The notes: generated from the letters alone by a model not told the origin. A DNA stretch of 64,000 bases from Parachlamydiales bacterium (GCA_050302075.1 JBNLAH010000001.1:196157-260156), one strand, 5' to 3'. Positions 21,772 to 60,072 are shown, counted from the first letter of the stretch. Translations and numbers: made by a program.

Positions 21772-21909
21772 ATATCCTCTTTTTGAAGATCTTAGAAAAA
21801 AAATCTTTTTTTTGTAGGAAAAAATAGAATTTAAAAATATTTAGTTTTTAAATGTAGAATATTCAGAAATTTTCATTTGGTATAAGAAAAAGTGACTAGC
21901 TTAAATTTC

Positions 21910-45250: not shown

Positions 45251-45338
45251 ATATGCCTGTGCCTACTAGTTCAGAAAATACTATCAAATTATCCTCTATA
45301 GTCTGCTTGTATTTGCATCAAGTTATTCTTTAATATAT

Positions 45339-45821
45339 TTAAGAATTAACTTGGGGTTTAGGAGAGTGAAAATAGGAAATAAGTTGCTTTGCATTTAAAG
45401 CAAAAAGAGCAATGAAAAGAATGCTTAATGGACTTGATAAATGCATTGAGAGGCCACATCCAAAAATCATTATAACACAGCTCATAATCTTTGCAGCTAT
45501 CATCCAAACTTTATCTAAAGCACTAAAAAGTTTCTCAAGCTTTGGAAGATTTCCAATATTTGCAATTTTTTGTATTCCATACGTCAGAAGAGGCATTGTA
45601 AGTCCAACACTTCCTAATGAAATAATACTTAAATCACTAAGATACAACTCAGATGCTGCAGCCATTAGAAAGATTGAGGAAGCAGGTTGCTGTAAGATTT
45701 TTCCAGCTACCCGTGTAATAGAAGATTCTGAGGATGTCTCCATAAGATTTCCAGCTGCTGAAGACACTCCTACTGAAGCTTCTAAATACATAATTAAATC
45801 ATGTAAATATATTGGACCCAT
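45339..45821 (-). CDS. Multi-TM Inc-like hypothetical protein, paralogue 1
   Basis: MGPIYL...KILQQPA...QKIANI.NLP.LEK.FS.LDKV; homologous to 50838 and 53909. Confidence 0.8.
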   Translation of the reverse strand: MGPIYLHDLIMYLEASVGVSSAAGNLMETSSESSITRVAGKILQQPASSIFLMAAASELYLSDLSIISLGSVGLTMPLLTYGIQKIANIGNLPKLEKLFSALDKVWMIAAKIMSCVIMIFGCGLSMHLSSPLSILFIALFALNAKQLISYFHSPKPQVNS

Positions 45822-46135
45822 AATTACTATTAGTTGATTAATTGTAAATTAATTATATATTAATGATAACTAAAAAACAAGAAATTGAATTATTATCAAT
45901 AATAATTTGATAGACACGTTATAATATAAAACTCAACTTTAAGTAAAATTATTTTTTTAAATAAACTAAAAATCTTTGCTTTAAGCGTTTATAAAAAAGA
46001 TAAATAAGTATGATTTTTTATAAAATAAAATGTTACAAATAATTTTAGACTTAGTTCTTATATTTTCTATAAAATTTTTTATAGTATTCTAGAAACATTT
46101 AAGCTTTCAGCTAGTTCGGAATATGTCTAAACAAA

Positions 46136-46171
46136 TGGAGATAAAGAGAAGTGTTCAGAATTTTTAACTGG
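46136..46171 (+). repeat. ssrA-end/att-like repeat 1 (degenerate)
   Basis: TGGAGATAAAGAGAAGTGTTCAGAATTTTTAACTGG. Confidence 0.75.
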
Positions 46172-46296
46172 AAGGAATTTTCAAACAAAATTGGGCAATA
46201 GGCTGTTTAGCCAACAGTTTGTTGTCTAATTAATAGTGATCTAATTTCATAGCCTCCTCAATGACGTGTTTGGAGCTATTAATTGTCTGCTAGGTT

Positions 46297-47586
46297 TTAG
46301 TTTTTACTGTTTAAAGTCTTAAAGCTAGCTCTGTAGCTTGCAACTATGAGTAGTACCATCAAAATAAAAACAAGTATCTTAAGATAGAGAGCTATAGCAG
46401 CAATTGATCCAAAGGTAACTAAGAGTCCTTGCGTGGTCAGTGATGGAACTGCCATCATAATAGGAAGTGCGATCATCTCAGTAACGATTTTGGTTTTGAA
46501 TCGGTTTTGATAGGGTAGATAGAGATATAATATTTGAGTTAAAGGGAAGAACAGAAAGCTAGCAGTAGTCACAAGAAGTCCATTAAAGACTCCTAGCCCT
46601 GGCCAAGATAAAGAGGAACTTAGAAAGATAATCCCTCCTACCAGGATAGATAGGGAGGCATAGAGAGCGGTGGTTTTCCATCCTTTCTTTAAAATGAGCC
46701 AGGTACCTAATATTACCCAAATAATAGAAATTGCAATTGTTGCAGAGACTACAAATCTTAAGTAACTGCCCATAAAAAGTTGGTAATCAGCTGGTTTCAG
46801 AGACTGAGTCTTAATCTGGAACTTAATGAGAATATCTAAAAAGTTTTTGATCATAGTAGAACCAGCTAATAAATAAGCAGCGCTTAAGATAGGAAAGTGA
46901 GTTTGTGATGAAGAAGACTCTTGGGGATGGATCAAACTATCCGGCAATCTTTTCCATGACCAGTTGAAGGTGAAGAAAGAAAAGACTACGAGGGCTATAG
47001 CTGGAATAACCATAGCCATTAGGGACCATTTGGAGGCGCCAATTGCCATTAAGCCTAAATTTGATACAATGGCTCCAGCAACACCCAAGACAAATGCAAG
47101 TGGAATATAATATTTTATTCCTTCAGGTAGGGAAGAAATACGATTAATAAACCCCCAGACAAATAGTGAATAAAGACTAAAGTTGAAAACACTTAGCATT
47201 ATGTACATCAGAGATATAACCCAGTGAGTTATCAAAGGTTTATATATTCCAAACGCTTCTGGTACCCCATTCAGTACCAAATGTTCTTGAAAAAACATTA
47301 GCCCAGTAAGAAGAACTATTACTCCTGTTAAAGCGATTAAAGTGCCCCTAAATACTTTTTCGAAGGGTTTGTAAATTGAAAAAATAAGAAGAGAGAGTGC
47401 CAGGATTATTTGGGGTAAGAATGTAGATACTTTAAGAGCTGGAATTTGAGCAAATCCTAGTTGTTTTCCTATGAGGGCATTTTGAGATAAATGAAAAAGA
47501 GTACTGCTACAAGAGAGGAGCACCAACAGCCATAAAGCTGGAAGAAAGATGAATTTTATGGCTTTTCGTAAGTTGGCATTTGTCAT
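46297..47586 (-). CDS. Divergent NTT/TLC (Npt1/Npt2-like) MFS transporter
   Basis: About 11-12 TM; LFVWGFINRI...KYYIPL, KKGWKTTAL and QILYLYL....RFKTK echo TLC-family motifs. Confidence 0.6.
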   Translation of the reverse strand: MTNANLRKAIKFIFLPALWLLVLLSCSSTLFHLSQNALIGKQLGFAQIPALKVSTFLPQIILALSLLIFSIYKPFEKVFRGTLIALTGVIVLLTGLMFFQEHLVLNGVPEAFGIYKPLITHWVISLMYIMLSVFNFSLYSLFVWGFINRISSLPEGIKYYIPLAFVLGVAGAIVSNLGLMAIGASKWSLMAMVIPAIALVVFSFFTFNWSWKRLPDSLIHPQESSSSQTHFPILSAAYLLAGSTMIKNFLDILIKFQIKTQSLKPADYQLFMGSYLRFVVSATIAISIIWVILGTWLILKKGWKTTALYASLSILVGGIIFLSSSLSWPGLGVFNGLLVTTASFLFFPLTQILYLYLPYQNRFKTKIVTEMIALPIMMAVPSLTTQGLLVTFGSIAAIALYLKILVFILMVLLIVASYRASFKTLNSKN

Positions 47587-47863
47587 GATAAATCCTGTTT
47601 TTTTAATTTTTTAAGCCGCTTGTACTTATAAGCTCATTTTTTCTATCTGATTTTCAACATGCAATCGGGTGCTCTATTCTACATTTTTTAGAACGATTGT
47701 TGCAAAAGGAAAGGAAGTTGGATGCTTCCTTTGCGGTTTCCTTTTTTTAGAGAAAATCTTTCTTAAGGATTTGACTTCATATTAAAATCTGATGGATTTG
47801 CATCTTTATCAGGGTTTTCAATTAAGAGCTTAAAGACTGAGATTGGATACAAAAAGTGTCCAA

Positions 47864-47899
47864 CCAGGTAGGAAGGATGCATTCAGAACTTTTGATTGG
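47864..47899 (+). repeat. ssrA-end/att-like repeat 2
   Basis: CCAGGTAGGAAGGATGCATTCAGAACTTTTGATTGG. Confidence 0.8.
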
Positions 47900-47966
47900 A
47901 AAAAAGTTGAATCAACTGATATGGTGCCCTTGCTAAAAATAAGGTTTTTGCACAAGAGCTAGTATT

Positions 47967-48806
47967 TTGAAAAAACTCTCTCTACTCCTTTTTCTATTGG
48001 TTATTTCTAAGGGACTTGCTGAAGAGAAATTAACAAGTCATTCATTGCCTACAGTTGTCATCACTTGCGCCTCAGGTGAACTAGGAGGAGCAATAGGAAA
48101 AAAATTGGCAAGTGCAAATAATTTGATTTTGACTGGTCGAAATCTAAAGAAACTTCAAATTCTTCAAAAAGAATTACAATCTAAATTCCCACACAATTAC
48201 GAAATAATTTTGCTAGACTATTGTGATTCATCTTCCATTCATGAATTTGAGAAAACTTTAAAAGTTAAAAAATCTGAAATTTCAGGCCTAGTTTTAATAA
48301 CGCCACGCCCCCAGTTTTGCAGTAGCCTACTAGAGTCTGAAGCAAATTGGATGAGTTTATTTCGACTTACTTTTACAGGTCCTATAGAGGTTCTCAAAAA
48401 AGTATTATCTCACACAGCCTCTCTACGTAAAATAGTTGTAATAGCGGGAACAACATCTGTTCAGCTGATCCCTGAGTATGGACCTACTTGTGTCATAAGA
48501 AGAATGTGGACGACTTATGTGAAAGCACTATCGCACCAGTTGGGTTCTAAAGGAATTTGTATAAACGCCTTATCACCAGGAGTTGTATTAACAGACTTCC
48601 ATGTTGAAAGAATAGCAATTAAAGCAAGACAAAATTATATTGATTACAATGATCAGATGAAGCAAGAGGTCGCGCAAATTCCTCTAGGACGTCATGCACT
48701 ACCTAGAGAAGTAGCGCAAACTGTAAAATTCCTTTTATCAAATGACTCAGACTTTATCAACGGAATCAATTTAGTGGTTGATGGGGGATCTACATTAAGC
48801 TATTAA
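47967..48806 (+). CDS. Atypical short-chain dehydrogenase/reductase
   Basis: VITCASGELG, INALSPG..LT, IPLGR...P.EVA and SDFING..LVVDGG; signal-like N-terminus. Confidence 0.82.
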   Translation: MKKLSLLLFLLVISKGLAEEKLTSHSLPTVVITCASGELGGAIGKKLASANNLILTGRNLKKLQILQKELQSKFPHNYEIILLDYCDSSSIHEFEKTLKVKKSEISGLVLITPRPQFCSSLLESEANWMSLFRLTFTGPIEVLKKVLSHTASLRKIVVIAGTTSVQLIPEYGPTCVIRRMWTTYVKALSHQLGSKGICINALSPGVVLTDFHVERIAIKARQNYIDYNDQMKQEVAQIPLGRHALPREVAQTVKFLLSNDSDFINGINLVVDGGSTLSY

Positions 48807-48971
48807 TGCTTATTTACCGTCTTTTTAAGTTTGGGAATAAAGAGAAATGAATTTTTCTAGATATGAGGTTTTTTCATTTAACGCTCTTTCCTAATTAAGG
48901 CATCAGAAGCTAGATCAACAACTATTTATGAGCCAGATAATAATTAACAAACCGACTGTCAAAGGGTACTT

Positions 48972-49502
48972 ATGAAACAGTTAAAGGAAACTATGCCTTC
49001 GCAGCTTGTTAAGTCTCTCGAAGAGATATACCAGCCGGCTGGCTTGAATATTCGTGATTTTGAAAGAGAAACCGAGAGTCAAGATTATGGAGCCTGTCGA
49101 TTCAGGCTAAATAGTCAAAAGATTGTGTTTCGTGTTGCAAAGACTACTCCAAAAAAAGTTGGACAATTTGTTGTTATATGGAAAAGAGCTGCAAGTGGTG
49201 TTATTGAGCCCTATGAAGTAAAAGACGATGTAAATTTTTTTGTAATTGCAGTACAAGCAAATGGCCATGTAGGTCAGTTTGTATTTCCTAAAAATGTTTT
49301 GCATGCAAAAGGAATTCTTTCAGGGAAAGGCTCTGAGGGCAAAAGAGCAATTAGGGTCTTTCCTGTATGGGATATTACTACAAGTCGACAAGCTAAGAAT
49401 ACTCAAGCATGGCAGCTTGATTATTTTTTCGAAATCACTAAAAATCAAGAAGAGAACATTTCAAATATTCAAAAAAGGTATAAGTATGACAATAAGTCCT
49501 AA
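48972..49502 (+). CDS. MepB family protein
   Basis: ESQDYGAC.F, FRVAK.TPKK.GQFV..WKR, GQFVFP, GKRAIRVFP.W and TQAWQL.YF. Confidence 0.85.
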   Translation: MKQLKETMPSQLVKSLEEIYQPAGLNIRDFERETESQDYGACRFRLNSQKIVFRVAKTTPKKVGQFVVIWKRAASGVIEPYEVKDDVNFFVIAVQANGHVGQFVFPKNVLHAKGILSGKGSEGKRAIRVFPVWDITTSRQAKNTQAWQLDYFFEITKNQEENISNIQKRYKYDNKS

Positions 49503-49857
49503 GCCCAACCTCCAGCTTGTTTATGTATCTGATATAAAGCATTCAACAGATTTTTATAAAATGATTTTTAAGGCTGAACCAGTGTTTACAAGTCCTCGTT
49601 ATGTGGCATTTTCGGCTGGAGAAGGCGCATTGTTTGCTATTTGGGCAGGAGGAACAGTTCCTGATGTATCTTCTCCCAGATATTCTGAGGTGGGAATTAT
49701 GCTACCTTCTAATGAAGCTGTAGACCAGCTCTATGAGGAATGGAAGCAGAATTCTGATATTAACATCGTTCAGGAACCCCAGACTGAAGTTTTTGGTCGT
49801 ACTTTTCTTGTAAAAGACCCTGATGGTCATATTATTCGCGTTTGCCTAAAAGATTAA
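49486..49857 (+). CDS. VOC/glyoxalase-bleomycin resistance family protein
   Basis: LVYVSD...S..FY and FGRTFLVKDPDGHIIRV; ATG 49486. Confidence 0.85.
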   Translation: MTISPKPNLQLVYVSDIKHSTDFYKMIFKAEPVFTSPRYVAFSAGEGALFAIWAGGTVPDVSSPRYSEVGIMLPSNEAVDQLYEEWKQNSDINIVQEPQTEVFGRTFLVKDPDGHIIRVCLKD

Positions 49858-49918
49858 TGAAATAAGATGTTCAAACCCGTAATCCGCTGAGATTGGATGA
49901 AAAAAGTGTCCAATTAAT

Positions 49919-49954
49919 TGGAGGTGGAGAGACTCGTTCAGAACTTTTAATTTG
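49919..49954 (+). repeat. ssrA-end/att-like repeat 3
   Basis: TGGAGGTGGAGAGACTCGTTCAGAACTTTTAATTTG; first 14 nt identical to 59670-59683. Confidence 0.92.
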
Positions 49955-50209
49955 ATGAAAGCTCATCAAAGTTCTCTCTTTTTAAACTCCTTTTATCATA
50001 TCCCCAGATCAGAGTCTTACGTGTTTCTAGTTTAGACAATTTTGTGCTTTCAAACCGACTTTCAGAAACGCTTTAAACTTCATGATCTATTTTTCTGGGA
50101 TGTCTCCAAAATTTCTCTTTTAAAAATAGTTTATTGGTAAATTTTAAGTTGTTTTTTTTGTTAATATTGATAAAGTTTTGCCCCACTTTAGAAACCTAAG
50201 GAGTATAAT

Positions 50210-50755
50210 ATGTGTGTTAGTTTTAGAAAACTTGGTACTGCGATTCTTGGAGCAAGTGCAGCTGGTTATGCTGCTGGAAGATTTAGCAATCAAAGACAAG
50301 TGCAAGCACAAATAGATGCTAGGGTAGAAAGTGCATATCTGCAGGCGCAACGAGAGGCAAAAGCTAAGATGCGCGAGCAAATGTACAATCGACTAGGAAT
50401 TGTGAGATTTGGTAATGCGCGAGCAAATTATGCTCCTGCTTTTGTTGTAGCAACAGTACCTCCATTTTCTGATATGCCAGTAGCTAAATTTGAAGGAGGG
50501 GGCATCCTTCCTGGTAGTGGTATAATGATGGACAAGGTGCGTATGACTGGCCAAAATGTATCTGAATGTCTAGCTGAATGTGTGGATGCTATAGAAGAGG
50601 ATCAAGCTCTTATTGTTATACACGATGGGCAGGCAGTGTTCGTTATAGGTTGTGGAGGACGTCCTGAATCGGATTGGAGTGCAGTACGCAAAGCTTTAGG
50701 AATTAATGAAAGTGTTTCAGGGGGGAAGATAACAGATGTTGACAATAGCATCTAA
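50210..50755 (+). CDS. Hypothetical protein
   Basis: 181 aa ORF with AAGGAG RBS; visibly more G+C-rich than its flanks. Confidence 0.65.
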   Translation: MCVSFRKLGTAILGASAAGYAAGRFSNQRQVQAQIDARVESAYLQAQREAKAKMREQMYNRLGIVRFGNARANYAPAFVVATVPPFSDMPVAKFEGGGILPGSGIMMDKVRMTGQNVSECLAECVDAIEEDQALIVIHDGQAVFVIGCGGRPESDWSAVRKALGINESVSGGKITDVDNSI

Positions 50756-50837
50756 TGTGAGTTGATTCAGAAAATACTATCAAATCATTCTCTCTAGCCT
50801 TCTTATAATTGCATGTCAAGCTGTTCTTTTAATATAT

Positions 50838-51332
50838 TTAAGAATTGACTTGGGCTTTAGAATTTTGAAAATAGGGCATAAGTTGCTTTGTATATAAAAC
50901 AGCATTTAATGCAAAAAGACCTATGAAAAGAAGGATTAGTGGACTTGATAAAGATGCTGAGAGGTTATACCCAATAATCATTGCACCACAGCTCATAACC
51001 TTTGCAGCTATCGACAAAACTTTATCTAAAGTACTAAAAAATTTCTCAAGCTTTGGAAGATTTGCAATGTTTGCAATTTTTTGCATTCCATGCGTTATAA
51101 GAGGCGCTATTAGCCCAATGCATCCTGATAAAATAGTGATTTCGTTTCTATAGTAAAAACCAGATACTATGCTCATTGTAAAGAGTGAGAAAGCAGGTTG
51201 CTGTAAAATTTTTCCAGCTATCTTACTAGTAGAAGATTCTGGTCTTGTTTCAATAAAGTTTCCAGCTGTTGAAGACAATCCTGTTGCAGCCATCAAGTAC
51301 ATAAATGGCCTATCTAAATATCCTGGTCCCAT
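50838..51332 (-). CDS. Multi-TM Inc-like hypothetical protein, paralogue 2
   Basis: Homologous to 45339 and 53909, including the flanks. Confidence 0.8.
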   Translation of the reverse strand: MGPGYLDRPFMYLMAATGLSSTAGNFIETRPESSTSKIAGKILQQPAFSLFTMSIVSGFYYRNEITILSGCIGLIAPLITHGMQKIANIANLPKLEKFFSTLDKVLSIAAKVMSCGAMIIGYNLSASLSSPLILLFIGLFALNAVLYTKQLMPYFQNSKAQVNS

Positions 51333-51843
51333 AATTTTACCTATTATTAATAGGTCTCTATTTTATATTAATTAAAATAAATAAACAAGAAACTAGATTA
51401 TTTTATAATTACTTTGGGTATATATTGTAATTTAATTTCTAGTTTTTTATTTAAAATGTTATATTATTAATTGCCGTAAATAACTGCAAGTTTGTTTCTT
51501 ATATTTTTTCCCCATTTATACTAATTTGTAGATATCTGAGAAATATTTCAAAGTAATAAAAATTTTTTTTTAATGTTTGTCTTCAATTGCGCTCAGTTAT
51601 TTTAATCTATTCAAATATATTTCTAAAAAACTGGGATTAGGAAATTACTTGTAAGTCTTATGATATAATTCATAAGATCATTGTAAAATTCAATTAAGTT
51701 AAGTCAAAATAAAGCGAAACAAAAAGCAAACTGAATGAAGCTTTTGCCTTAAAAGTAAACATTGCTCGTAAAAGATAAGCTTTCTTTCACAATCGAAAAA
51801 AAACTTAACAAGTCCCTCAACATAAATGTTTTCATTTGCAAAA

Positions 51844-51879
51844 TGGAGGTGGAGAGACGAGTTCAGAACTTTTGACTAT
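51844..51879 (+). repeat. ssrA-end/att-like repeat 4
   Basis: TGGAGGTGGAGAGACGAGTTCAGAACTTTTGACTAT. Confidence 0.92.
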
Positions 51880-52055
51880 GCTTTGAAAAGAAATCTTTTT
51901 CATTTACGTGGGAGAGGATGTTAAGTAGATCATTTTTATACAAGACAAAAAGGGAACATAAATAAAACTGCATTCAGCTTTTATCTTCAAAATAAATAAA
52001 TATATCTGCCATAATTTTCCGATTTAAAAAACATATCTTTAAATGGATTTAGATT

Positions 52056-53693
52056 ATGAAGTGTTATATAAAAAGTTTTTGTAAATTGTTTAGTGTTTTT
52101 CTAGCTGTAATCGGGTGTTTGTCTTCCCAACCATTATTCTCTGAAGCTTTAAAAACTGAAATGTTTTCTGTCGAAAAACCAGTTTTGCCAAAAATTTCCA
52201 ATCTTCAACTCCCAACACTAAACTCTGAAGTCTGTTCAAATCAAGACGGAAAAATACTACAGAGTTATAAAAAGAAGTTTGAAAAAAAATATGGCCGTAA
52301 TTTTTTAAAAAAACAGTGCAATTACAATTTTCTTTCTCTGGTTTGTAAAAAAGATTTGCAATGTGCTACTAGCATGCAAAAAAAAGCAGTTCAATTCCTA
52401 AAAATGATCTTTGAAGAACTCTCTAAAGCCAATTATAGCAAAGAAGACTTTCGTCATTATATGAACTGGTCTTTGAATATTTCTAGTTCATTATTTTTTG
52501 AAAAATATCTTTTTGCAGAGGAAGAGTTAAATGATTTATTTTACAAGCTCAATGATATTTCTGTCAGATCTCTCACTCCTAGATCAGCAGAAGAAAAAGG
52601 AAGGCATGAGGCATTTGCCTTAAAAAGCAAAAATGGGAAAGTTGCAGCTTTGATAAAAGTTGTAAAAGGTCCTAGGAATGCTTGGGCTAAAGTAGCACCT
52701 ATCATGGAGCAAAACGGTTCTGCAGGTCTTTATGAAAAGGTGGGTTATGATATTGATGTAATCTTAGGTTTGAAAATGACCCCGGCCACGTTGCTTGGGA
52801 AAATGCAATTAGAAAATGGTGAGACTGAAGATGTGGTCATCCAAAACTTTATTTCTAACTCCATTGATTTAGGTAATCTTTTGTATCGAGAAGATGGTGC
52901 TGAACTTATTATGAGCATTCCTACAGCTCCAGCTCAGATGATGGCCTTAAGTGGTATGATTAAAGGTCGTTTAGGTGGACACTTGGGTAATTATCTGTTT
53001 CATTTAAAAGATGGAGTAATAGATACAGTTTATGATATTGATTTAGAAGAACTTTTACCTCCTTGCAATCGACTTGAAAAAGGAATGACTCTATACCCTT
53101 TAAAAGAAGATAGAAATCAAGCCGATCGAATCAATGTATCTGATCTTAGCTCAGATTTACAGGAAATGGCTTATAAATCTGCTCCCTTATGTAGAATGTG
53201 TATTTTAGGATTACCACAGAATGGAAAGCCTTTTGAAAGGGCATGTTTGAAAATTATTGTGCATGATTTGCTTCCCTGTTTGCTAGATGAGTATCATGAA
53301 TATTTAAATGATGAAAAAGAAATTAGAAGAGAGTGCTTGCAAGCTCAAAAGGAACGTCTTTTAAAAATTCAGGAAATTTGCAAACAGCAATTAGAACTTC
53401 CTGAAATTTCGCTAACTCCAAGAGACCTTTATTTTTATCTTTTTGGAGGAAAACATCTTTATAAATTAGCCCGTGAAAGAGGATATCCTCCAATTATTAT
53501 TTTCAATCAAGTCATTGGAGATCCTCTTCAACATAGTATGATTGATTTTTCACGTCCTGAAAAAATGCCTTTTTGTAAATTTTTGAATGAGAGAGATACT
53601 TCAGAGCAGAAAAAAGCTCATAGTGATTTTATATTTGATAATCTGCTTATCTTAGAAAATCAAGAATCTCTAGCAGGTCAAGGCAATCAATAA
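52056..53693 (+). CDS. Exported PI3/PI4-kinase-like (type II PI4K fold) protein
   Basis: AALIK, EKVGYDID..LG...TPAT, IQNFI, GGHLGNYL and DIDLEELLP in PI4K order; signal peptide. Confidence 0.55.
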   Translation: MKCYIKSFCKLFSVFLAVIGCLSSQPLFSEALKTEMFSVEKPVLPKISNLQLPTLNSEVCSNQDGKILQSYKKKFEKKYGRNFLKKQCNYNFLSLVCKKDLQCATSMQKKAVQFLKMIFEELSKANYSKEDFRHYMNWSLNISSSLFFEKYLFAEEELNDLFYKLNDISVRSLTPRSAEEKGRHEAFALKSKNGKVAALIKVVKGPRNAWAKVAPIMEQNGSAGLYEKVGYDIDVILGLKMTPATLLGKMQLENGETEDVVIQNFISNSIDLGNLLYREDGAELIMSIPTAPAQMMALSGMIKGRLGGHLGNYLFHLKDGVIDTVYDIDLEELLPPCNRLEKGMTLYPLKEDRNQADRINVSDLSSDLQEMAYKSAPLCRMCILGLPQNGKPFERACLKIIVHDLLPCLLDEYHEYLNDEKEIRRECLQAQKERLLKIQEICKQQLELPEISLTPRDLYFYLFGGKHLYKLARERGYPPIIIFNQVIGDPLQHSMIDFSRPEKMPFCKFLNERDTSEQKKAHSDFIFDNLLILENQESLAGQGNQ

Positions 53694-53711
53694 AAAGTCG
53701 AAATTTAGAAA

Positions 53712-53742
53712 AAAATGAGGCAACAAACTGTTGCCTCATTTT
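53712..53742. terminator. Bidirectional intrinsic terminator
   Basis: Perfect 14 bp stem AAAATGAGGCAACA-AAC-TGTTGCCTCATTTT between convergent genes. Confidence 0.85.
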
Positions 53743-53795
53743 CAACAGCTTACTGGCAAATATTAATAATAGTGATCTGAGTTCATAGGATTTAA

Positions 53796-53831
53796 GGGGA
53801 GTGTAGGGATAAATTCAGAACTTTTGATTGG
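53796..53831 (+). repeat. ssrA-end/att-like repeat 5
   Basis: GGGGAGTGTAGGGATAAATTCAGAACTTTTGATTGG. Confidence 0.8.
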
Positions 53832-53908
53832 CATGGGGTTATAGTAATGTCTTCTCATCCCCCCTATAACATGCTTATAATAACACTTAAGCTATTCTTT
53901 TAATATAT

Positions 53909-54409
53909 TTAAGGATTAACGAGGTCTTTAGAAGGTTGAAAATAGTGCATAAGTTGCTTTGTATATAAAACAGCATTTAATGCAAAAAGACTTAAGAAAA
54001 GAAGGATTAGTGGACTTGATAAAGATATTGAGAGCTTATATCCAAAAATCATTGCACCACAGCTCATAACTTTTGCAGCTATCGACAAAACTTTATCTAA
54101 AGTACTAAAAAATTTCTCAAGCGTTGGAAGATTTGCAATATTTGCAATTTTTTGCATTCCAAGCGTTAGAAGAGGCATTGCAAGTCCAACACTACCTAAT
54201 AAAATATAGCTCCTGAGTCCAAGATCTAGATCTAGATCTGATACTTCATTCATTAGAAGGATTGAGACAGCAGGTTGCTGTAAGATTTTTCCAACTACCT
54301 TACCGATAGAAGATTCTGAGTCTGTTTCAATGAAGTTTCCAACTGTTGAAGACAATCCTGCTGTAGCCATCAAGTACATAATTGGCTTATCTAGATATAT
54401 TGGTCCCAT
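53909..54409 (-). CDS. Multi-TM Inc-like hypothetical protein, paralogue 3
   Basis: Homologous to 45339 and 50838. Confidence 0.8.
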   Translation of the reverse strand: MGPIYLDKPIMYLMATAGLSSTVGNFIETDSESSIGKVVGKILQQPAVSILLMNEVSDLDLDLGLRSYILLGSVGLAMPLLTLGMQKIANIANLPTLEKFFSTLDKVLSIAAKVMSCGAMIFGYKLSISLSSPLILLFLSLFALNAVLYTKQLMHYFQPSKDLVNP

Positions 54410-54441
54410 AATTTTACCATTAGTTAATTAACTATGTGTTA

Positions 54442-54470
54442 ATTATATATTAATTAAAATAAATAGACAA
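54442..54470 (-). promoter_or_regulatory. Sigma66/70-type promoter of paralogue 3
   Basis: TTGTCT-N17-TATAAT; similar sequence lies upstream of paralogues 1 and 2. Confidence 0.6.
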
Positions 54471-54623
54471 GAATCTGATTTTTTAATAATAATTACTTGA
54501 TATTTATATAATAATATAGTTGCGTTTTTAATTTAAAATGATGTTTTTTATAAAATAAATTACGGCAAGTAGCTATAAGTTTAAATAACTTGAATCAGTT
54601 CTTTATAGCCCTTTGCTACAAAT

Positions 54624-54659
54624 TAACAGTGGAGAGACGCTTTCAGAACTTTTGATTGG
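54624..54659 (+). repeat. ssrA-end/att-like repeat 6
   Basis: TAACAGTGGAGAGACGCTTTCAGAACTTTTGATTGG. Confidence 0.88.
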
Positions 54660-54717
54660 GATAATTTCGCTAAAAAGGCTATAACTTTTTCTAAAATTTA
54701 TATCAGTAGAAGAGCCT

Positions 54718-55029
54718 ATGGATAGAGGAGAAGTAATACTTTACACAACAGCAGATGGTCAGACCTCCATCTAATATATTTCTGAGATGCCATTCATTAT
54801 TTTAAGAGCAAAAAACTCAAATAAGATAGGTATGTTGCGGACATCTGCTATAGAGCTCGGAATCAAGTTTGTGGATTTTACTGATACAATTACAATTGGT
54901 ACTTATCAAGAGCAGCTAGAGCGAACAAAAGTCACTCAGAAAGCTGATCTAATTTACTATGGAATCGTATTATTTGGTGATTGGGAAAAAGTACCAGAAT
55001 TGACTAAAAAGTTTTCTCTCTGGAAGTAA
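54718..55029 (+). pseudogene. Deletion junction: RhuM/Fic-associated N-terminal stub joined to the C-terminal half of a DUF2000-like gene
   Basis: MDRGEVILYTTADGQTSI* (54718-54774), then in the same frame YISEMPFIILRAKNSNKI...YYGIVLFGD...LTKKFSLWK. Confidence 0.6.
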
Positions 55030-55041
55030 GGCCTGAATATC

Positions 55042-55929
55042 ATGAATATTTCAATAGATGCTTCTCTAGTCAGTCGTTTGATTGCCTCTCAATTTCCTAA
55101 CTGGAAACATCTTCCTATTGAACCTGTAGCGATGAGTGGGTGGGATAATCGAACCTTCCATTTAGGTAAAAAAATGTTGGTTCGCCTTCCAAGCAAAGCA
55201 GATTATGAACTGCAAGTGGAAAAGGAGCATGAGTGGTTACCAAAACTCGCTCTAGCGCTTCCAGTTTCAATTCCTATTCCTTTGGCAATGGGCAGGCCAG
55301 AGTATGGGTATCCTTGGAAATGGTCGATTTATCAATGGCTTGAAGGTGAGACTGTAGCTACTGATTTGCCGAGTGATTTAGTTGCATTTGCCCTTGATCT
55401 TGCCAGTTTTCTGAAAGCTTTACATAAAATCGATACTGAGGGAGGGCCCTCGCCAGGATTACACAGTTTTTATCGAGGTGGACCGTTATCAATTTACGAT
55501 TCGGATACACGTAAAGCAATTCTTTCCTTAAAAAGGAAAATTGATGCAAAGACAGCAACGGATATTTGGGAAAAAGCTTTATCAACTTCTTGGAAGGATC
55601 ATCCTGTGTGGGTTCACGGAGACATCAGCGCCGGCAACCTTTTAGTTAAAGCTAATAAACTTTGTGCTGTGATTGATTTTGGGCAACTAGCAGTAGGTGA
55701 TCCAGCATGTGATCTTGCTATCAACTGGACGTTATTTTATGGGAAAAGTAGGAATGCCTTTCAAAAGGCATTTTCTTTTGATGAAGATACTTGGGTACGG
55801 GCTCAGGGGTGGGTTTTATGGAAAGCGTTAATTGTAGCAGTTGGTGGTACCAATCCAAGTAATTTCGAGTCGAAGCAGTGTTGGCGTATTCTTGAAGAAG
55901 TAATAGAAGATCACCGTAAGTCTAATTGA
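55042..55929 (+). CDS. Aminoglycoside phosphotransferase (APH) family protein
   Basis: GWDNRTFHLG, VRLPS, WVHGDISAGNLL and VIDFG....GDPACDL. Confidence 0.9.
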   Translation: MNISIDASLVSRLIASQFPNWKHLPIEPVAMSGWDNRTFHLGKKMLVRLPSKADYELQVEKEHEWLPKLALALPVSIPIPLAMGRPEYGYPWKWSIYQWLEGETVATDLPSDLVAFALDLASFLKALHKIDTEGGPSPGLHSFYRGGPLSIYDSDTRKAILSLKRKIDAKTATDIWEKALSTSWKDHPVWVHGDISAGNLLVKANKLCAVIDFGQLAVGDPACDLAINWTLFYGKSRNAFQKAFSFDEDTWVRAQGWVLWKALIVAVGGTNPSNFESKQCWRILEEVIEDHRKSN

Positions 55930-56094
55930 TACTCTCTCAATTTAATTTAATAATCCTGACTTGATCCATTTTTTCAGATTGATACTTGATTTTGCAAAAG
56001 CATCTGCAGGACTTTTATTAAAGGGGGCAGGCCAAGGACGAAGGTTAGGGTAGCGTTACAGCTGGGATTTTTAGTTACATGTCACTAAAAACAA

Positions 56095-56122
56095 AAGGCT
56101 TTAGCCGTAAAACTAAAGCCTT
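56095..56122 (-). terminator. Hairpin immediately downstream (minus sense) of the ssrA-end copy at 56132
   Basis: AAGGCTTTAG-N8-CTAAAGCCTT followed by a U-tract on the minus strand. Confidence 0.7.
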
Positions 56123-56131
56123 AAAATTAGT

Positions 56132-56167
56132 TGGAGGTGGAGAGACGCATTCAGAACTTTTGATTGG
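56132..56167 (+). repeat. ssrA-end/att-like repeat 7 (best match to consensus)
   Basis: TGGAGGTGGAGAGACGCATTCAGAACTTTTGATTGG. Confidence 0.93.
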
Positions 56168-56228
56168 TCTAAAATGGATCAAAATTTTAATGTAATTAAC
56201 TGTTATTTAGTCAGTTAAGCTTTTGTTG

Positions 56229-56293
56229 TTGACGTTGAGAATTGGATAGAATATACTGCAGTTGTTGATTAATTGATGTAAATACTATCCAAT
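56229..56293 (+). promoter_or_regulatory. abiE promoter with overlapping inverted-repeat operator
   Basis: TTGACG-N17-TATACT; imperfect IR ATTGGATAGAATATAC (56241-56256) / GTAAATACTATCCAAT (56278-56293). Confidence 0.7.
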
Positions 56294-56920
56294 ATGAAAA
56301 GAAAATCAAAAGCTATTCGAGATAAAGCTATTGAAATATTTAAGCTTCATGGAGGTATTCTCAGATCTTCAAAGGCTATTAAGGAAGGAATACATCCTCG
56401 TATTCTTTATGAATTACGTAATCAGGGTATTATTGAAGAGCTTCAAAGGGGATTATATGCTTTAACCGATTTACCTGACATTGAAGATCCTGATTTAGTT
56501 GCAATTTCAAAAATGATACCTGATGGAGTTATTTGTTTAATATCGGCTCTTTATTTTCATCGTTTGACAGTACAAATTCCAAGATGGATAGATATTGCAG
56601 TTAAGAGAAAATATGTTCCTCCTAAAGTCAAACATCCTCCAATCCAAATTCATTGGTTTTCAGATAAATTTTATAAATCAGGCATAGAAAAATATAATTT
56701 TGGGGGAGCTGAAATAAAAATATATTCTCGAGAAAAATCGATTATTGATTGCTTCAGATTGAGAAAAAAAATAGGGATTGATGTTGCTGTAGAAGCTTTG
56801 AAGAATTATTTAAAACAGGATAATCTTAATATTCATCTTTTGTTGGATTTTGCAAAGGAATCGAGAGTAATTAAATTATTAGAACCATATCTACAGGCTT
56901 TAATTTATGATCAATCATAA
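56294..56920 (+). CDS. abiEi: Type IV TA antitoxin, AbiEi family
   Basis: N-terminal wHTH (G.I..L.RGLY), GVICLISALYFH.LT.QIP and IYSREKSI.DCFR.R.KIG. Confidence 0.88.
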   Translation: MKRKSKAIRDKAIEIFKLHGGILRSSKAIKEGIHPRILYELRNQGIIEELQRGLYALTDLPDIEDPDLVAISKMIPDGVICLISALYFHRLTVQIPRWIDIAVKRKYVPPKVKHPPIQIHWFSDKFYKSGIEKYNFGGAEIKIYSREKSIIDCFRLRKKIGIDVAVEALKNYLKQDNLNIHLLLDFAKESRVIKLLEPYLQALIYDQS

Positions 56921-57791
56921 CATAAAAAACATTTCAGTTTCAGTAAAAGCCCGTCTATTAAACCTTGCTCGCAATTCAAAAAGACCTTTTCAGGAATTAT
57001 TGCAATATTATGGAATGGAGCGTTTTCTTTTTAGACTATCAGAATCTAATCATAGAGATGTATTTATTTTAAAAGGAGCTCTTCTTTTAAAAGTTTGGAG
57101 AATTTCTGATTCTCGAGCAACGATGGATATTGATACTTTAGCAAGAACATCAAATTCTTTGGAAAATCTTAATAAAATAACAAAAGAGATATGCGAGCAT
57201 GTTCCATCTATTGATGATGGTGTTGAATTTCTTTCGTCTTCCGTTAGAGTAGAAAAAATGCAATTGCAGAAAGAGTATGAAGGTATTCGAATTCGTTTTG
57301 AAGGCTGTCTTGGTTCTGCAAAAATTCCAATGCAAATTGATGTTGGGTTTGGGGATGTTATTACTCCTGCGGTTGAAGAATACCAATATCCAAATCTTCT
57401 AGATTTTCCAGGACCAAAACTTAAAATGTATCCTCAAGAAACACTTATTGCAGAGAAAATTTTAACAATGGTTGAAAAAGGAGAAACAAATAGTAGAATA
57501 AAGGATTTTTATGACGTTTGGCTTCTAATTCGACACAATACATTTTCTCATGAGATATTGAAATTAGCTTTGGATAGAACTTTTAAATCTCGTAATATGC
57601 AATATAATTTCAAAACAGTTCGATCTTCGATTGAAATATATTTAAAAAGCGTTCAGGCAAATTTATTATGGGAAAGATTTAAACTAAAGAAAATACCTCA
57701 GATATATCAGCATATTTCATTTGAAATTTTAACAAATGAAATAATCAATCTTTTAGAGAAGATAGAAGAAAATATTTTACTCAAATTATAA
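56907..57791 (+). CDS. abiEii: Type IV TA toxin, AbiEii nucleotidyltransferase
   Basis: ERFLFRLS, FILKGALL, RATMDID, IDVGFGD, AEK and SRIKDFYD; overlaps abiEi. Confidence 0.9.
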   Translation: MINHNIKNISVSVKARLLNLARNSKRPFQELLQYYGMERFLFRLSESNHRDVFILKGALLLKVWRISDSRATMDIDTLARTSNSLENLNKITKEICEHVPSIDDGVEFLSSSVRVEKMQLQKEYEGIRIRFEGCLGSAKIPMQIDVGFGDVITPAVEEYQYPNLLDFPGPKLKMYPQETLIAEKILTMVEKGETNSRIKDFYDVWLLIRHNTFSHEILKLALDRTFKSRNMQYNFKTVRSSIEIYLKSVQANLLWERFKLKKIPQIYQHISFEILTNEIINLLEKIEENILLKL

Positions 57792-57815
57792 TATTGAGAA
57801 TTAAAATAATAAGCC

Positions 57816-58463
57816 TTAAATAATCTGAAGTCTTAAATTAAAATCAGAAAGATCATAAAAAAATGAATTTTTATGAATATAGGGGTTCATTCTTTGCCTT
57901 TCATTTAGCTCTTTTTCCCAATTTTCCTTATTGTTTAAGGCGTCAGAAGCGGCATCAACAACTATTGCAGATCCAGATAAAATAAGTGCAGTGCTGGTTC
58001 CAGCGCTAAATGGAGCGGCCAAGACACCTACAAGAATTTGACCTATACCAAACCAATATTTCAATTTAACTCCACTAGGCTGTTCTAGTTTGCATAAGTG
58101 AGCCATATTCTTTAAGCTAATCGGTTTTACGGATACAGATCGAGTTTTATAATATATTTGTAAAGCAAAATTCATCATAGGATCTAAAAGCTCCTCATTT
58201 GATAGGCTATGAATAAACTTATCAATGAGCAAAGATCCTTTTTCAAGATCTCCCTTAGAAAGATAAACCGCAGCTCTCATGCCTGTTATTTTGCTTTTCT
58301 GTTCAGGTTCGAAAGTTTCCCATTCGTCCAATGTTTGCAAACTTTCTAAAAACCTCTCTTCTTGAAAGTAATGAATAAAAGACTCTGCATATCGACTACT
58401 TAAAGGAGATGCAAAAATAAATAAGGGAAACGGTAAAAATATAAACAATCTCAGAAAATGCAT
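57816..58463 (-). CDS. Exported hypothetical protein (TPR-like, hydrophobic C-terminal hairpin)
   Basis: ATG 58463 after GGAGG; signal peptide; GILAAPFSAG-type segment. Confidence 0.6.
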   Translation of the reverse strand: MHFLRLFIFLPFPLFIFASPLSSRYAESFIHYFQEERFLESLQTLDEWETFEPEQKSKITGMRAAVYLSKGDLEKGSLLIDKFIHSLSNEELLDPMMNFALQIYYKTRSVSVKPISLKNMAHLCKLEQPSGVKLKYWFGIGQILVGVLAAPFSAGTSTALILSGSAIVVDAASDALNNKENWEKELNERQRMNPYIHKNSFFYDLSDFNLRLQII

Positions 58464-58663
58464 GAAGTTCCTCCAAACATTTTTATAAAAAGACATCCTG
58501 CAAGTATTGATCCCCAAAGGAGCACTATTCCTTTACGCATTTTTTTTTTGTCATTCATTTGCCAAGCTGTTTTTAGCATTAATATGCTGGGAGGTAATGC
58601 AAAAAAAGAAAATAGTAAAAGTCCTAAACGGACTATAGAAAAAACAATGTATCCTAGTTCCAT
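58451..58663 (-). CDS. Small two-TM protein
   Basis: 70 aa, overlapping the next gene operon-style. Confidence 0.5.
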   Translation of the reverse strand: MELGYIVFSIVRLGLLLFSFFALPPSILMLKTAWQMNDKKKMRKGIVLLWGSILAGCLFIKMFGGTSCIF

Positions 58664-58741
58664 AAAACCCCCATTTTGAGGAAGAAAAATATATATAAAT
58701 AAAAATTATATTGTCAAGTAGCTACGAATGACTTTTGGAAG

Positions 58742-59371
58742 TTAATATTTACTTTTTATGGAATGACTAAGATTCCCTATAAAATAGCATCTAGGACTAG
58801 AAATCAAATGTACACTTTTGGGATCTAATTTTGAGCCAACCGATATTTCTAATTTTACAGTATCAAGTAAATCACATTCTATCTCTATTTCATCATTCAA
58901 TTGCACCTGAGTCAATGAATCTTTTAATATAAGAAGATCGTAATCAAAAGAAACTGTTTTATTTGTTGTTATTAGTTTTACAATAGCAATTTTCTGGCTA
59001 GTAATGTTTTTTAATAGTATTTTCCATTTTATTTCGAATGTTCCTTCCAATTTAAGAGTTATGTAGGGATCTCTTAAAAACGGTACTGAAAAAAAAGTTC
59101 CATCTCCTGTTATATTTTTTGGGGATTCGAATTCAGTATAATTCCATTCCCTGGTCGAATGAAAATAATTTGATGTATTTGAATAGTGGTTATTGATTGT
59201 ATCAGCTTGCTGAATAGAGTTATTGTTGCTGTTATTCATAGAAATAGGATTACCATGTTTAGTCTTAGACTGCACTTTCTGAACAGGAGAATTCTCTTTT
59301 TTTGAGGAAAACGTGAATTTAAACTTATCAAAGATTTTAGGTGACATTTTTTCTATTGGATAATTTAACAA
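58742..59371 (-). CDS. Hypothetical protein (start uncertain; ATG 59347 is plausible)
   Basis: About 200 aa ORF with an Asn/Ser-rich low-complexity N-terminal part. Confidence 0.55.
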   Translation of the reverse strand: MLNYPIEKMSPKIFDKFKFTFSSKKENSPVQKVQSKTKHGNPISMNNSNNNSIQQADTINNHYSNTSNYFHSTREWNYTEFESPKNITGDGTFFSVPFLRDPYITLKLEGTFEIKWKILLKNITSQKIAIVKLITTNKTVSFDYDLLILKDSLTQVQLNDEIEIECDLLDTVKLEISVGSKLDPKSVHLISSPRCYFIGNLSHSIKSKY

Positions 59372-59400
59372 AAAAGCCTATCAGATTTGATAGGCCTTTT
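59370..59400 (-). terminator. Terminator behind the displaced ssrA 3' copy
   Basis: GCCTATCA-GATT-TGATAGGC stem with a U-tract on the minus strand. Confidence 0.75.
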
Positions 59401-59413
59401 GACTATATTTGTC

Positions 59414-59439
59414 AATGAAGGTGGAGAGAATCGAACTCT
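59414..59439 (+). repeat. 26 bp direct repeat of the ssrA 3' end (attR-like)
   Basis: AATGAAGGTGGAGAGAATCGAACTCT versus AATGGAGGTGGAGAGAATCGAACTCT at 59668-59693; 1 mismatch. Confidence 0.92.
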
Positions 59440-59630
59440 ATGATTTTTTCTAAACTGGATCAAACTTCGATAAATAACATTAATAATATCAATAAGTTAA
59501 GTGATGTTCAAATGTTCTATCTTATTTTGGTTTTAGCCGCTTTTTTGCAGTCTAGTGCGTAAGTAGTGCGTAAATGAATTTAACAAAGCAGATTTTGAAA
59601 TTGTAAATTTAAGATATTTCTCTTTAAAAA

Positions 59631-59661
59631 TAAAAGACTTCGCTTGGATTTTGCGAAGTCT
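59631..59661 (-). terminator. ssrA terminator
   Basis: AGACTTCGC-N9-GCGAAGTCT stem followed by a U-rich tract on the minus strand. Confidence 0.78.
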
Positions 59662-59669
59662 AGAATGAA

Positions 59670-60072
59670 TGGAGGTGGAGAGAATCGAACTCTCGTCCTT
59701 AGCAAACTCAATATTAATGACTACATGCTTATCTCCTTTGTTAATAATCTACTCTGATGAAAGGAGCAACACTACAAGTAGATTTAATCCTCGTTGTCTT
59801 GGGTATCTTTTCAGAGGATCAGAGAAAAGGACCCAAACCCAGAAATATGACGGTAGATTCTAAAACTCTGGATCTGATTTTAGGCTACCGGGCGCTTAAA
59901 ACTGTTAGGTCTTAAGCAGCAGCTGCAAAAGTTTCTACTCCAGCAGAGAAGTCAACTTTTACGATTTTGCTTTCTTTAGCAATTATAGTGTAATCGGCTT
60001 TTTAAGAGGCCAACCGATCAACCTCTGCATGCCACTAATACGAAATTTCCAAGTCGAAACCTGTTCACCCCC
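59670..60072 (-). ncRNA. ssrA: tmRNA; tag peptide (A)AKESKIVKVDFSAGVETFAAAA* at 59980-59912
   Basis: 5' GGGGGTGAACAGGTTTCGAC; 3' GGACGAGAGTTCGATTCTCTCCACCTCCA with G3.U alanine identity pair and T-arm; CCA not encoded; extended -10 TGTTATAAT at 60088-60080. Confidence 0.96.

Follow-up and report, generated by a model that had tools for sequence, protein, structure and literature searches.

Downstream of the transfer-messenger RNA (tmRNA) gene ssrA of a Parachlamydiales bacterium lies a run of small gene modules, strung together by copies of a 36-nt repeat that opens with the end of the tmRNA itself. The stretch of DNA we analyzed, 64 kb long and called the window throughout, belongs to a genome assembly of 1.84 Mb (G000, with contigs C1, C2, C6 and C89), and array coordinates are positions in the whole stretch. 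The distal flank of the array is a TPR gene ending at 45250, and that end is syntenic with the relative L047. At the proximal end sits the tmRNA gene, for which the Rfam family RF00023 gives a match at G000:C1:255823-256228. Between the two, from 45251 to 59669, there are about nine modules, none with a recombinase. Our reading, which we hold at a probability of about 0.7, is that this is a tandem accretion array made of non-autonomous members of an element family whose own enzyme is a large serine recombinase (LSR) specific for the tmRNA gene.

An earlier reading of this DNA, made from the sequence only, had described seven co-oriented 36-nt repeats, all intergenic and 0.8–2.1 kb apart, with an exact tmRNA-derived core in the copies at 49919, 51844 and 56132 and a decayed core in the other four. 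This description stands, and five features are to be added to it: a 24-nt copy of the tmRNA end at 59416, a left-arm motif before two of the repeats, three paralogous genes in the array, two copies of the repeat elsewhere in the genome, and a module boundary near 57816 without a repeat. All seven repeats are present on the + strand, between genes and 0.83–2.06 kb apart, with exact and decayed cores divided as described; positions 1–14 of the repeat correspond, as reverse complement, to the 14-nt tmRNA end (59670-59683), and the 22-nt arm that follows lies outside the tmRNA sequence, as had also been claimed. A left 15-mer, allowed up to three mismatches, has six matches in the window where 0.51 would be expected (six were reached in 0 of 100 shuffles), and a right 18-mer has eight against 0.30 expected, seven of them being the repeats and the eighth, at 21862, carrying three mismatches. 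A profile scan, run with a profile built from 177 junctions in other genomes, recovers exactly these seven in the window at E values from 4.3e-14 to 3.6e-4, with the next best match at E 0.63. From distal to proximal, the scores are 16.7, 29.4, 36.5, 36.5, 22.4, 36.5 and 48.3. The same scan found no further decayed repeats above noise at 20–46 kb of the window.

Table 1. Features of the array and of the tmRNA end, in window coordinates
Feature	Coordinates	Strand	Remarks
Module 0	45251..46135		160-aa membrane protein gene, 45339-45821 (-); no repeat on left side
Repeat 1	46136..46171	+	most distal and most decayed; profile E 3.6e-4
Module 1	46172..47863		429-aa TLC-family nucleotide transporter-like protein, 46297-47586 (-), Pfam PF03219
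Repeat 2	47864..47899	+	decayed core, exact right arm; left-arm motif before it at 47837-47863
Module 2	47900..49918		short-chain dehydrogenase, 47967-48806; MepB-like, 48972-49502; glyoxalase-fold protein within 49279-49857 (Pfam)
Repeat 3	49919..49954	+	exact core; left-arm motif (TTGGAT, 9 nt, GTCCAAT, TAAT) before it at 49887-49918
Module 3	49955..51843		181-aa function-unassigned protein, 50210-50755; membrane protein paralogue 2, 50838-51332 (-)
Repeat 4	51844..51879	+	exact core; three right-arm mismatches; profile E 2.2e-10
Module 4	51880..53795		545-aa protein, 52056-53693; no Pfam match; N terminus signal-peptide-like by eye
Repeat 5	53796..53831	+	decayed core, exact right arm; profile E 6.1e-6
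Module 5	53832..54623		membrane protein paralogue 3, 53909-54409 (-)
Repeat 6	54624..54659	+	first 6 nt of core replaced; profile E 2.3e-10
Module 6	54660..56131		5'-truncated DUF2000 open reading frame, 54787-55029; APH-family phosphotransferase, 55042-55929 (Pfam)
Hairpin, terminator type	56095..56122	-	9 nt from repeat 7 core; -14.5 kcal/mol; largest flank family
Repeat 7	56132..56167	+	36/36 consensus match; left end of AbiE module; score 48.3, E 4.3e-14
Module 7a	56168..57815		AbiEi/AbiEii pair, 56294-56920 and 56907-57791; Pfam PF13338, PF08843
Module 7b	57816..59415		two function-unassigned open reading frames, 57816-58517 and 58742-59371, both (-)
Hairpin, terminator type	59376..59395	-	left of the 59416 copy; second flank family
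24-nt copy of tmRNA 3' end	59416..59439	+	one mismatch; core plus 10 nt of tmRNA body; usual right arm absent
Hairpin	59635..59661	-	directly downstream of tmRNA 3' end; from the sequence, taken to be the current tmRNA terminator
tmRNA gene (ssrA), integration target	59670..60072	-	ARAGORN

The modules are as small and compact as had been claimed, at 0.25–3.3 kb in the window and 365–3987 nt in 45 cassettes from 21 sources; in all but one of those sources the repeats are co-oriented. The genes, by contrast with the sites, occur in both orientations. Several cargo open reading frames (ORFs) in the arrays examined take the TGA of the right arm as their stop codon. By eye, the minus-strand ORFs that stop there look RhuM-like, like a hydrolase and like a NUDIX protein. 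We considered whether the right arm might be the 3'-end remnant of one conserved minus-strand gene and rejected the idea, the ORFs stopping inside it being mutually unrelated. Three modules carry membrane-protein paralogues, all on the minus strand (45339-45821, 50838-51332 and 53909-54409), of 160–166 aa and without a Pfam family. Their DNA is 73–83% identical, including about 100 nt upstream and downstream, and a homologue in L047 is oriented the other way and runs directly up to a partial right arm. The DUF2000 ORF spans only positions 53–133 of a 133-position profile, so module 6 opens with a 5'-truncated gene. Its leader of about 115 nt (54660-54775) is 92–97% identical to the leaders of otherwise different cassettes in L047 and L038, and the stretch 54631-54775 is 96.6% identical to L047.

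In the bacterium's own assembly the repeat is confined to the array locus apart from two copies, so that it is nearly restricted to the tmRNA end and not scattered genome-wide. One, near perfect and with unique flanks, is on a 506-bp contig (G000:C89:205-240) and perhaps represents an alternative array junction in the population sampled. The second, at G000:C2:55214-55249, is an orphan in decay, and no tRNA, tmRNA or LSR gene lies nearby. The link to the tmRNA reaches well beyond this genome. We surveyed 101 genomes of the same family with a 31-nt version of the repeat at up to three mismatches, using the reversed pattern as a control. Forty-six genomes, from 28 of 53 genera, carry the repeat; the control had no match in any genome. 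In 25 of the 46 the repeat is on a contig that also holds the tmRNA, and in all 25 at least one repeat, on the strand opposite to the tmRNA, lies downstream of its 3' end. For the remaining 21, repeat and tmRNA lie on separate, mostly short contigs from which the geometry is not readable. An exact 26-nt version of the repeat turned up 107 stretches in a species-level genome collection, nearly all of them in records labelled as chlamydiae of several families. When 70 copies are stacked without gaps, positions 1–36 having partly served to select them, conservation starts exactly at the tmRNA-end base and stops sharply at position 36; beyond it on the right, an A-rich stretch and a single conserved T are all that remains. 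A variant core, TGGAGGTGGTTGGA, stands in place of TGGAGGTGGAGAGA in 8 of 183 junctions (L045, L038 and L039 among them), and in L045, where this was checked, it mismatches the tmRNA end of its own host.

What could have put these sites there? The sequence-only reading had found no recombinase or transposase in the 64 kb, and a Pfam scan of 56 window ORFs finds none either. It had gone on to suggest a recombinase acting in trans and encoded elsewhere. A whole-assembly search of the bacterium's own genome gave no match to the serine recombinase family PF00239. With no such enzyme in the window or the assembly, any movement of the array needs one in trans, and the array cannot move by itself now. 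PF00239 matches do occur in 38 of the 101 family genomes, and tblastn of the family's LSR proteins against 79 repeat-bearing loci supplied the link. In the relative L118 an intact LSR ORF of 496 aa runs antisense into the tmRNA 3' end; the C terminus of the protein is ...PTNWRWRESNSRP, the final ten residues being encoded by antisense tmRNA. The domains follow in the order PF00239 Resolvase (3-152), PF07508 Recombinase (177-263) and PF13408 Zn_ribbon_recom (278-328), and phmmer against the Protein Data Bank found no solved structure for it at E 1e-3. At the other end of the L118 element, 7.76 kb away, sits a 36/36 repeat. The element carries DUF1398, an aldo-keto reductase, a 477-aa function-unassigned protein, a SpoVG-like protein, a CHC2-AAA_25 primase-helicase, a 172-aa function-unassigned protein and the LSR; no remnants of these genes were found in the window.

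L118 does not stand alone. An LSR gene at a tmRNA or repeat edge is found in the relatives L118, L092, L186-L195, L204 and L211, and in none of the loci of the window's own genome. L092 has an LSR gene lacking its N terminus beside the tmRNA, followed by four repeats. Only the last ~80 LSR codons remain in L115 and L138, again adjoining the tmRNA, and in L136 the stump reads in frame through a full repeat (...PTNWRWRDAFRTFDW...). A tblastn match to the LSR C terminus in L144 likewise runs into a full repeat, its frame broken by stops, and further stumps lie in L113, L128, L038 and L031 and, beside the tmRNA of another genome, at G049:C38:10107-10370. A wider survey took in 400 genomes of the chlamydial order, with LSR homologues called at E 1e-30 or better. 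Seventy-eight genomes have one, although many of the matches are C-terminal pieces, partial or stop-containing. Among the best 30 loci the 3' end adjoins the tmRNA in 11 (seven of them full length without stops) and tRNA-Tyr, tRNA-Leu or tRNA-Met in 6, and no RNA gene was found at the 3' end in 13. The tRNA-overlapping LSR genes of the family (L067, L069, L071, L072, L074, L075, L076 and L079) encode a protein tail, for example ...WGRxDSN..., that is read from the T-arm and acceptor end of the tRNA. One C-terminal stump of the tRNA-Leu type survives in the bacterium's own genome (G000:C6:178222-178437; 64% identical to the L067 protein over 75 aa), although no LSR catalytic domain remains there. 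Judged from these sequences, a single LSR clade appears to have switched between tRNA and tmRNA targets.

Set beside the recombinase gene, the repeat resolves into a site with a recognizable anatomy. On the + strand of the window its left arm, at LSR-linked junctions, consists of the final ~25 nt of the LSR gene (TTGGAT, 9 nt, ATCCAACCAAT); the 14-nt core, TGGAGGTGGAGAGA, is the antisense of the tmRNA end; and the right arm is the 22 nt CGCATTCAGAACTTTTGATTGG. The left-arm motif also stands before the distal repeat of L118, and a shorter form of it before the window's repeats at 47864 and 49919, whose 27-nt left-arm blocks are 93% identical to each other. It is kept at 11 of 183 distinct junctions and missing at 172. 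By eye, CCAAYCAA stands at -9..-1 and its reverse complement at 27-36; a dyad centre, and perhaps the crossover, is hinted at near core positions 13/14, where identity between repeat and tmRNA stops. From this anatomy the repeats are read as hybrid att sites, core plus right arm, belonging to a tmRNA-specific LSR element family that is found across the order. In the circular state of such an element the 22-nt arm would also serve as the last codons of the recombinase gene.

An array could then build up as follows. The LSR would cross the element's site with the tmRNA end, and the right arm would stay behind at the far end of the insert as the repeat we see. The element's other end would bring a new tmRNA 3' end and a new terminator, cutting off the old one. 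Because each insertion recreates the target, inserts would pile up, the newest adjoining the tmRNA. In the bacterium's own genome every LSR gene has been lost, or was never there, leaving modules that are cis-mobilizable at best and that could move only with the LSR of an incoming autonomous element, alone or as composites. Of all this, the sequences show the anatomy of the site, the connection with an LSR in relatives, the breaks of homology at repeats and the terminators; a crossover near core positions 13/14, the sequence of insertions and any trans movement are inferred from them.

The left flanks of the cores suggest what happened to the old terminators. We folded the 45 nt to the left of 183 cores, in the tmRNA sense, with two windows further left and shuffled sequences as controls. 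The adjoining 45 nt average -10.5 kcal/mol, and 51% of them reach -10 or below; the control windows average -5.3 and -5.1 kcal/mol, with about 10% at -10 or below in each, and the shuffled flanks average -4.7 kcal/mol. When 40 tmRNA-proximal flanks were clustered with the 183 repeat flanks, the two kinds shared families. The largest cluster joins 7 tmRNA-proximal and 19 repeat junctions, relatives of the 56132 flank among them, and the same family sits directly behind the tmRNA in other genomes; members of the second cluster resemble the flank at 59416. The left flanks are accordingly read as former tmRNA terminators, and the shared families fit serial insertion at the tmRNA end. A tRNA-like fold, or a primer-binding site for mature tmRNA, was also considered and rejected by eye, there being no CCA complement before the core. 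The copy of the tmRNA 3' end at 59416 opens, on the left, a 254-bp unit (59416-59669) in which no ORF reaches 50 aa; this unit could be an empty cassette or represent a second site type. The ~20 nt after this copy resemble those after the 56132 repeat (CTAAA.TGGATCAAA).

If modules had come and gone through these sites, genomes should differ in units bounded by repeats, and the sequence-only reading had said that strain differences breaking elsewhere would count against it. Between genomes the differences do break at the repeats. The transporter module (module 1) has counterparts in L109 (84% identity) and L081 (82%) that begin at a perfect repeat and have unrelated left flanks; the window's copy has a decayed repeat and a 71-nt insert compared with these two. 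The cassettes L041_c4 and L042_c3 are 82% identical from position 1, and the three cassettes of L042 are each common to a different genome. L047, the nearest syntenic relative, has the same TPR and tmRNA flanks and nearly all of the content between them is different. The AbiE module takes the comparison into public runs (X1, X2, X3 and X6), all available as contigs only. Its segment 56139-57824 is 98.1% identical on a 1,774-nt contig of X3, and 56079-57188 is 97.4% identical in X2, on a contig that departs from the window over its other 1,849 nt. On a contig of X2 a repeat directly adjoins position 57816; the last interval is therefore probably two modules (7a and 7b in Table 1) whose intervening site has been lost. 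The tmRNA pieces in the AbiE-bearing runs are only about 90–91% alike. Short joints at repeats in X2, X3 and X6 (side 20–35 nt) were looked at as possible excision products and set aside as probably belonging to the arrays of other organisms, while low-depth small contigs of X1, with the repeat between other flanks, were not interpretable and went unused.

Several observations pull against the accretion reading, and they belong together. Neither the window nor the array locus has an LSR gene or stump, so the link to the enzyme rests on relatives, and in the sample of 101 family genomes no PF00239 match lies on a contig bearing the repeat or the tmRNA. Eight of 17 fetched LSR loci of the family overlap tRNA genes antisense (Leu, Ser, Phe, Tyr). 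The repeats do not decay monotonically outwards from the tmRNA, and the module boundary near 57816 has no repeat in the window. The fold-test p-values overstate the case because the junctions counted are mutually related, and 146 of the 223 left flanks are singletons in the clustering. Nor can it be proved that the AbiE contigs and the divergent tmRNA pieces come from one organism. Finally, since the left arm is kept in only 11 of 183 junctions, most internal sites are half sites. A classical LSR requires a pair of them and, unless a directionality factor is present, will not act on hybrid sites.

How much of the array is debris? The most serious rival has the modules as random-deletion leftovers of autonomous LSR elements of about 8 kb, with nothing smaller ever having moved and the repeats as inert scars. 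Several findings favor it. The sequence-only reading had itself named full-size, integrase-bearing islands in relatives as the sign of a graveyard, and such islands exist (the 7.8-kb element of L118, and the 11 of the best 30 LSR loci that lie at the tmRNA). LSR C-terminal stumps adjoin the tmRNA or repeats in many genomes, the order survey is rich in partial and stop-containing LSR matches, the left-arm motif is gone from 172 of 183 junctions, and the bacterium's own genome has no LSR. As LSR stumps remain, some arrays elsewhere clearly arise by decay of autonomous elements, and decay accounts for part of the pattern. Other observations speak against decay as the whole story. In the newest insert a 36/36 repeat is present, yet nothing of an LSR is left at the opposite end. 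The right ends of modules are enriched in terminator hairpins that fall into shared families, which random deletion ends would not give; two modules keep only the ~27-nt left-arm motif, with the same outer boundary, CTGAG; and cargo ORFs that stop inside the right arm mean tight packing. A repeat-bounded module of 1.7 kb that is 97–98% identical in unrelated samples is also hard to square with leftovers. A graveyard and nothing more is therefore, in our judgment, unlikely. The packed modules, their conserved terminator ends and the near-identity of the AbiE module in unrelated samples suggest that at least some modules move about in small units, by themselves or in composites with a helper element. 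One might go further and see true mobile cassettes, with a minimal site of terminator hairpin, 14-nt core and 22-nt arm, a rare LSR helper serving an order-wide cassette pool and the tmRNA end playing the part of attI. We hold this idea only tentatively, thinking it more likely wrong than right.

Two other rivals would replace the enzyme altogether. A tyrosine recombinase might act here, either XerC/XerD at a dif-like site in the manner of IMEX elements or the third integrase of the bacterium's own genome. That genome does have three PF00589 genes, two of them Xer-like and all outside the window, and 13 of the 46 repeat-bearing genomes show only two Xer-like genes, so an enzyme that is always present would fit. 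Against this, tblastn of all three recombinases with 40 array loci gave no match, the PF00589 matches of five relatives include none on an array contig, and the third integrase adjoins tRNA-Met about 95 kb from the array, on an island of its own. The repeat reads in frame as the tail of an LSR gene, shows no dif-like dyad by eye and has the tmRNA end, not dif, as its target. We regard this rival as very improbable. PF00589 counts in the 101 genomes and positions in the five relatives were unlinked to arrays. A fuzzy genome-wide search for dif, made with two textbook motifs and with a generic inner palindrome, yielded no site convincing enough for comparison with the repeat, and XerCD/dif was dropped. 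The last rival is a true integron analogue, in which a resident integrase, an attI-like tmRNA end and a promoter would capture folded single-stranded sites. Co-oriented sites, compact cargo modules and cargo stop codons inside the site all have an integron look. Yet no resident integrase was found in the window or the genome, genes lie in both orientations, and the site is a linear conserved block of 36 nt without attC-like paired arms (52 nt to the left and 60 nt to the right were examined) that belongs to the tail of an LSR gene. Even slighter in our estimation than the tyrosine recombinase, this rival is already close to refuted. The sequence-only reading had joined two ideas, repeated site-specific integration at the ssrA 3' end and an integron-like capture platform. 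The first of these survives and the second falls, there being no resident integrase, attI or promoter unit and no attC-like folded repeats.

Two neighboring regions deserve mention. To the left of the TPR gene, from 21900 to 42300, the window holds accessory-type genes in which no repeat was found (DUF2254, ferric reductase-like, alcohol dehydrogenase, Hsp20, GNAT acetyltransferase, Ada, 3-methyladenine glycosylase and two Rce1-like proteases). This region is either an older, fully eroded part of the array hot spot or unrelated to it. About 84–92 kb beyond the window end lies a second integrative island (G000:C1:343875-352173), where a 352-aa tyrosine integrase and a 274-aa neighbor adjoin tRNA-Met; its primase-helicase (C1:343875-345140) is 38% identical to that of the L118 element.

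Why should any of this matter? Chlamydiae are intracellular, and their opportunities for gene exchange are considered few. Here is one fixed chromosomal site at which about half of the sampled family genomes gather small foreign modules, whose cargo includes genes for defence, for transporters and for detoxification-type enzymes; conservation of the 36-nt site itself spans the chlamydial order. A concrete enzyme is indicated, an LSR specific for the tmRNA whose two partner sites are known base by base, and the arrays look integrase-less because autonomous elements are rare (11 of the best 30 LSR loci lie at the tmRNA in 400 genomes) and scars are common. Should modules prove movable in trans, they would amount to a second, independently evolved way to build a cassette array; should they be mobile cassettes, obligate intracellular bacteria would have their own counterpart of the integron, built on a serine recombinase. 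Environmental chlamydiae could also gain a genetic tool in such a native, site-specific integrase, whose target is known.

Full-text literature searches found no description of such a system in Chlamydiae. The systems compared here come from further afield. Mobile integrons share the compact, mostly promoterless and co-oriented modules, with one site each and entry at one fixed end. They differ from the chlamydial array in their platform-encoded tyrosine recombinase (IntI), their folded single-stranded attC sites and their common promoter. The staphylococcal cassette chromosome (SCC) is nearer in mechanism. SCC elements, and the ccr-less pseudo-SCC composites found with them at rlmH (orfX), depend on large serine recombinases, for which the 3' end of an essential single-copy gene is the target; the composites stand in tandem, bounded by short direct repeats, and recombinase-less members depend on CcrAB in trans. 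Going by description only, the likeness lies in an LSR at the 3' end of a single-copy gene, tandem repeat-bounded units and members without a recombinase, whereas SCC has a protein-coding target, two recombinases (CcrA and CcrB) and much larger elements. Recombinase-less, att-flanked elements in tandem are known as well from the cis-mobilizable elements (CIMEs) related to the integrative and conjugative elements (ICEs) ICESt1 and ICESt3 of Streptococcus thermophilus, where they stand in tandem with an autonomous element and are movable by its recombinase. The chlamydial array is like CIMEs in having such elements in tandem, and unlike the ICESt1/ICESt3 family, which uses a tyrosine integrase, targets the fda 3' end and is conjugative.

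The closest known system is that of the ssrA-specific genomic islands (ssrA-GIs) of Dehalococcoides, integrase-less members included. These are tandem islands behind ssrA, bounded by 20-bp repeats, with a serine recombinase of ~540 aa, DsiB, at the island edge, its gene overlapping ssrA or the repeat (McMurdie et al. 2011, PMC3146451). Fifteen of the 31 ssrA-GIs have no integration module, and the authors read them as cis-mobilizable and gathered by accretion (PMC3146451). Some differences stand out. Chlamydial modules are 0.25–4 kb long with one to three genes and are not phage-sized; the recombinase-less state dominates in the sampled chlamydial family; and the host phylum is Chlamydiota, with a 22-nt non-tmRNA arm conserved across the whole order. 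The L118 element has a primase-helicase and a SpoVG-like gene where the Dehalococcoides account describes a DsiA/RecF/ParB/Mom module, and neither a second small serine recombinase (DsiA) nor a ParB or Mom homologue was seen in that element. The L118 LSR and DsiB are set side by side here by description and gene position only. The likenesses are in the architecture: tandem insertion directly downstream of ssrA with direct repeats of the ssrA 3' end, in the window and in all 25 relatives whose repeat and tmRNA share a contig; and tandem arrays that include members without an integration module, as in the window, where no module has a recombinase. An LSR gene of ~500 aa at the edge, overlapping tmRNA or repeat, occurs in relatives; the window and its array locus have neither such a gene nor an LSR stump. 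The array represents, in chlamydiae, a type of genomic island already known, and is not a new integron.

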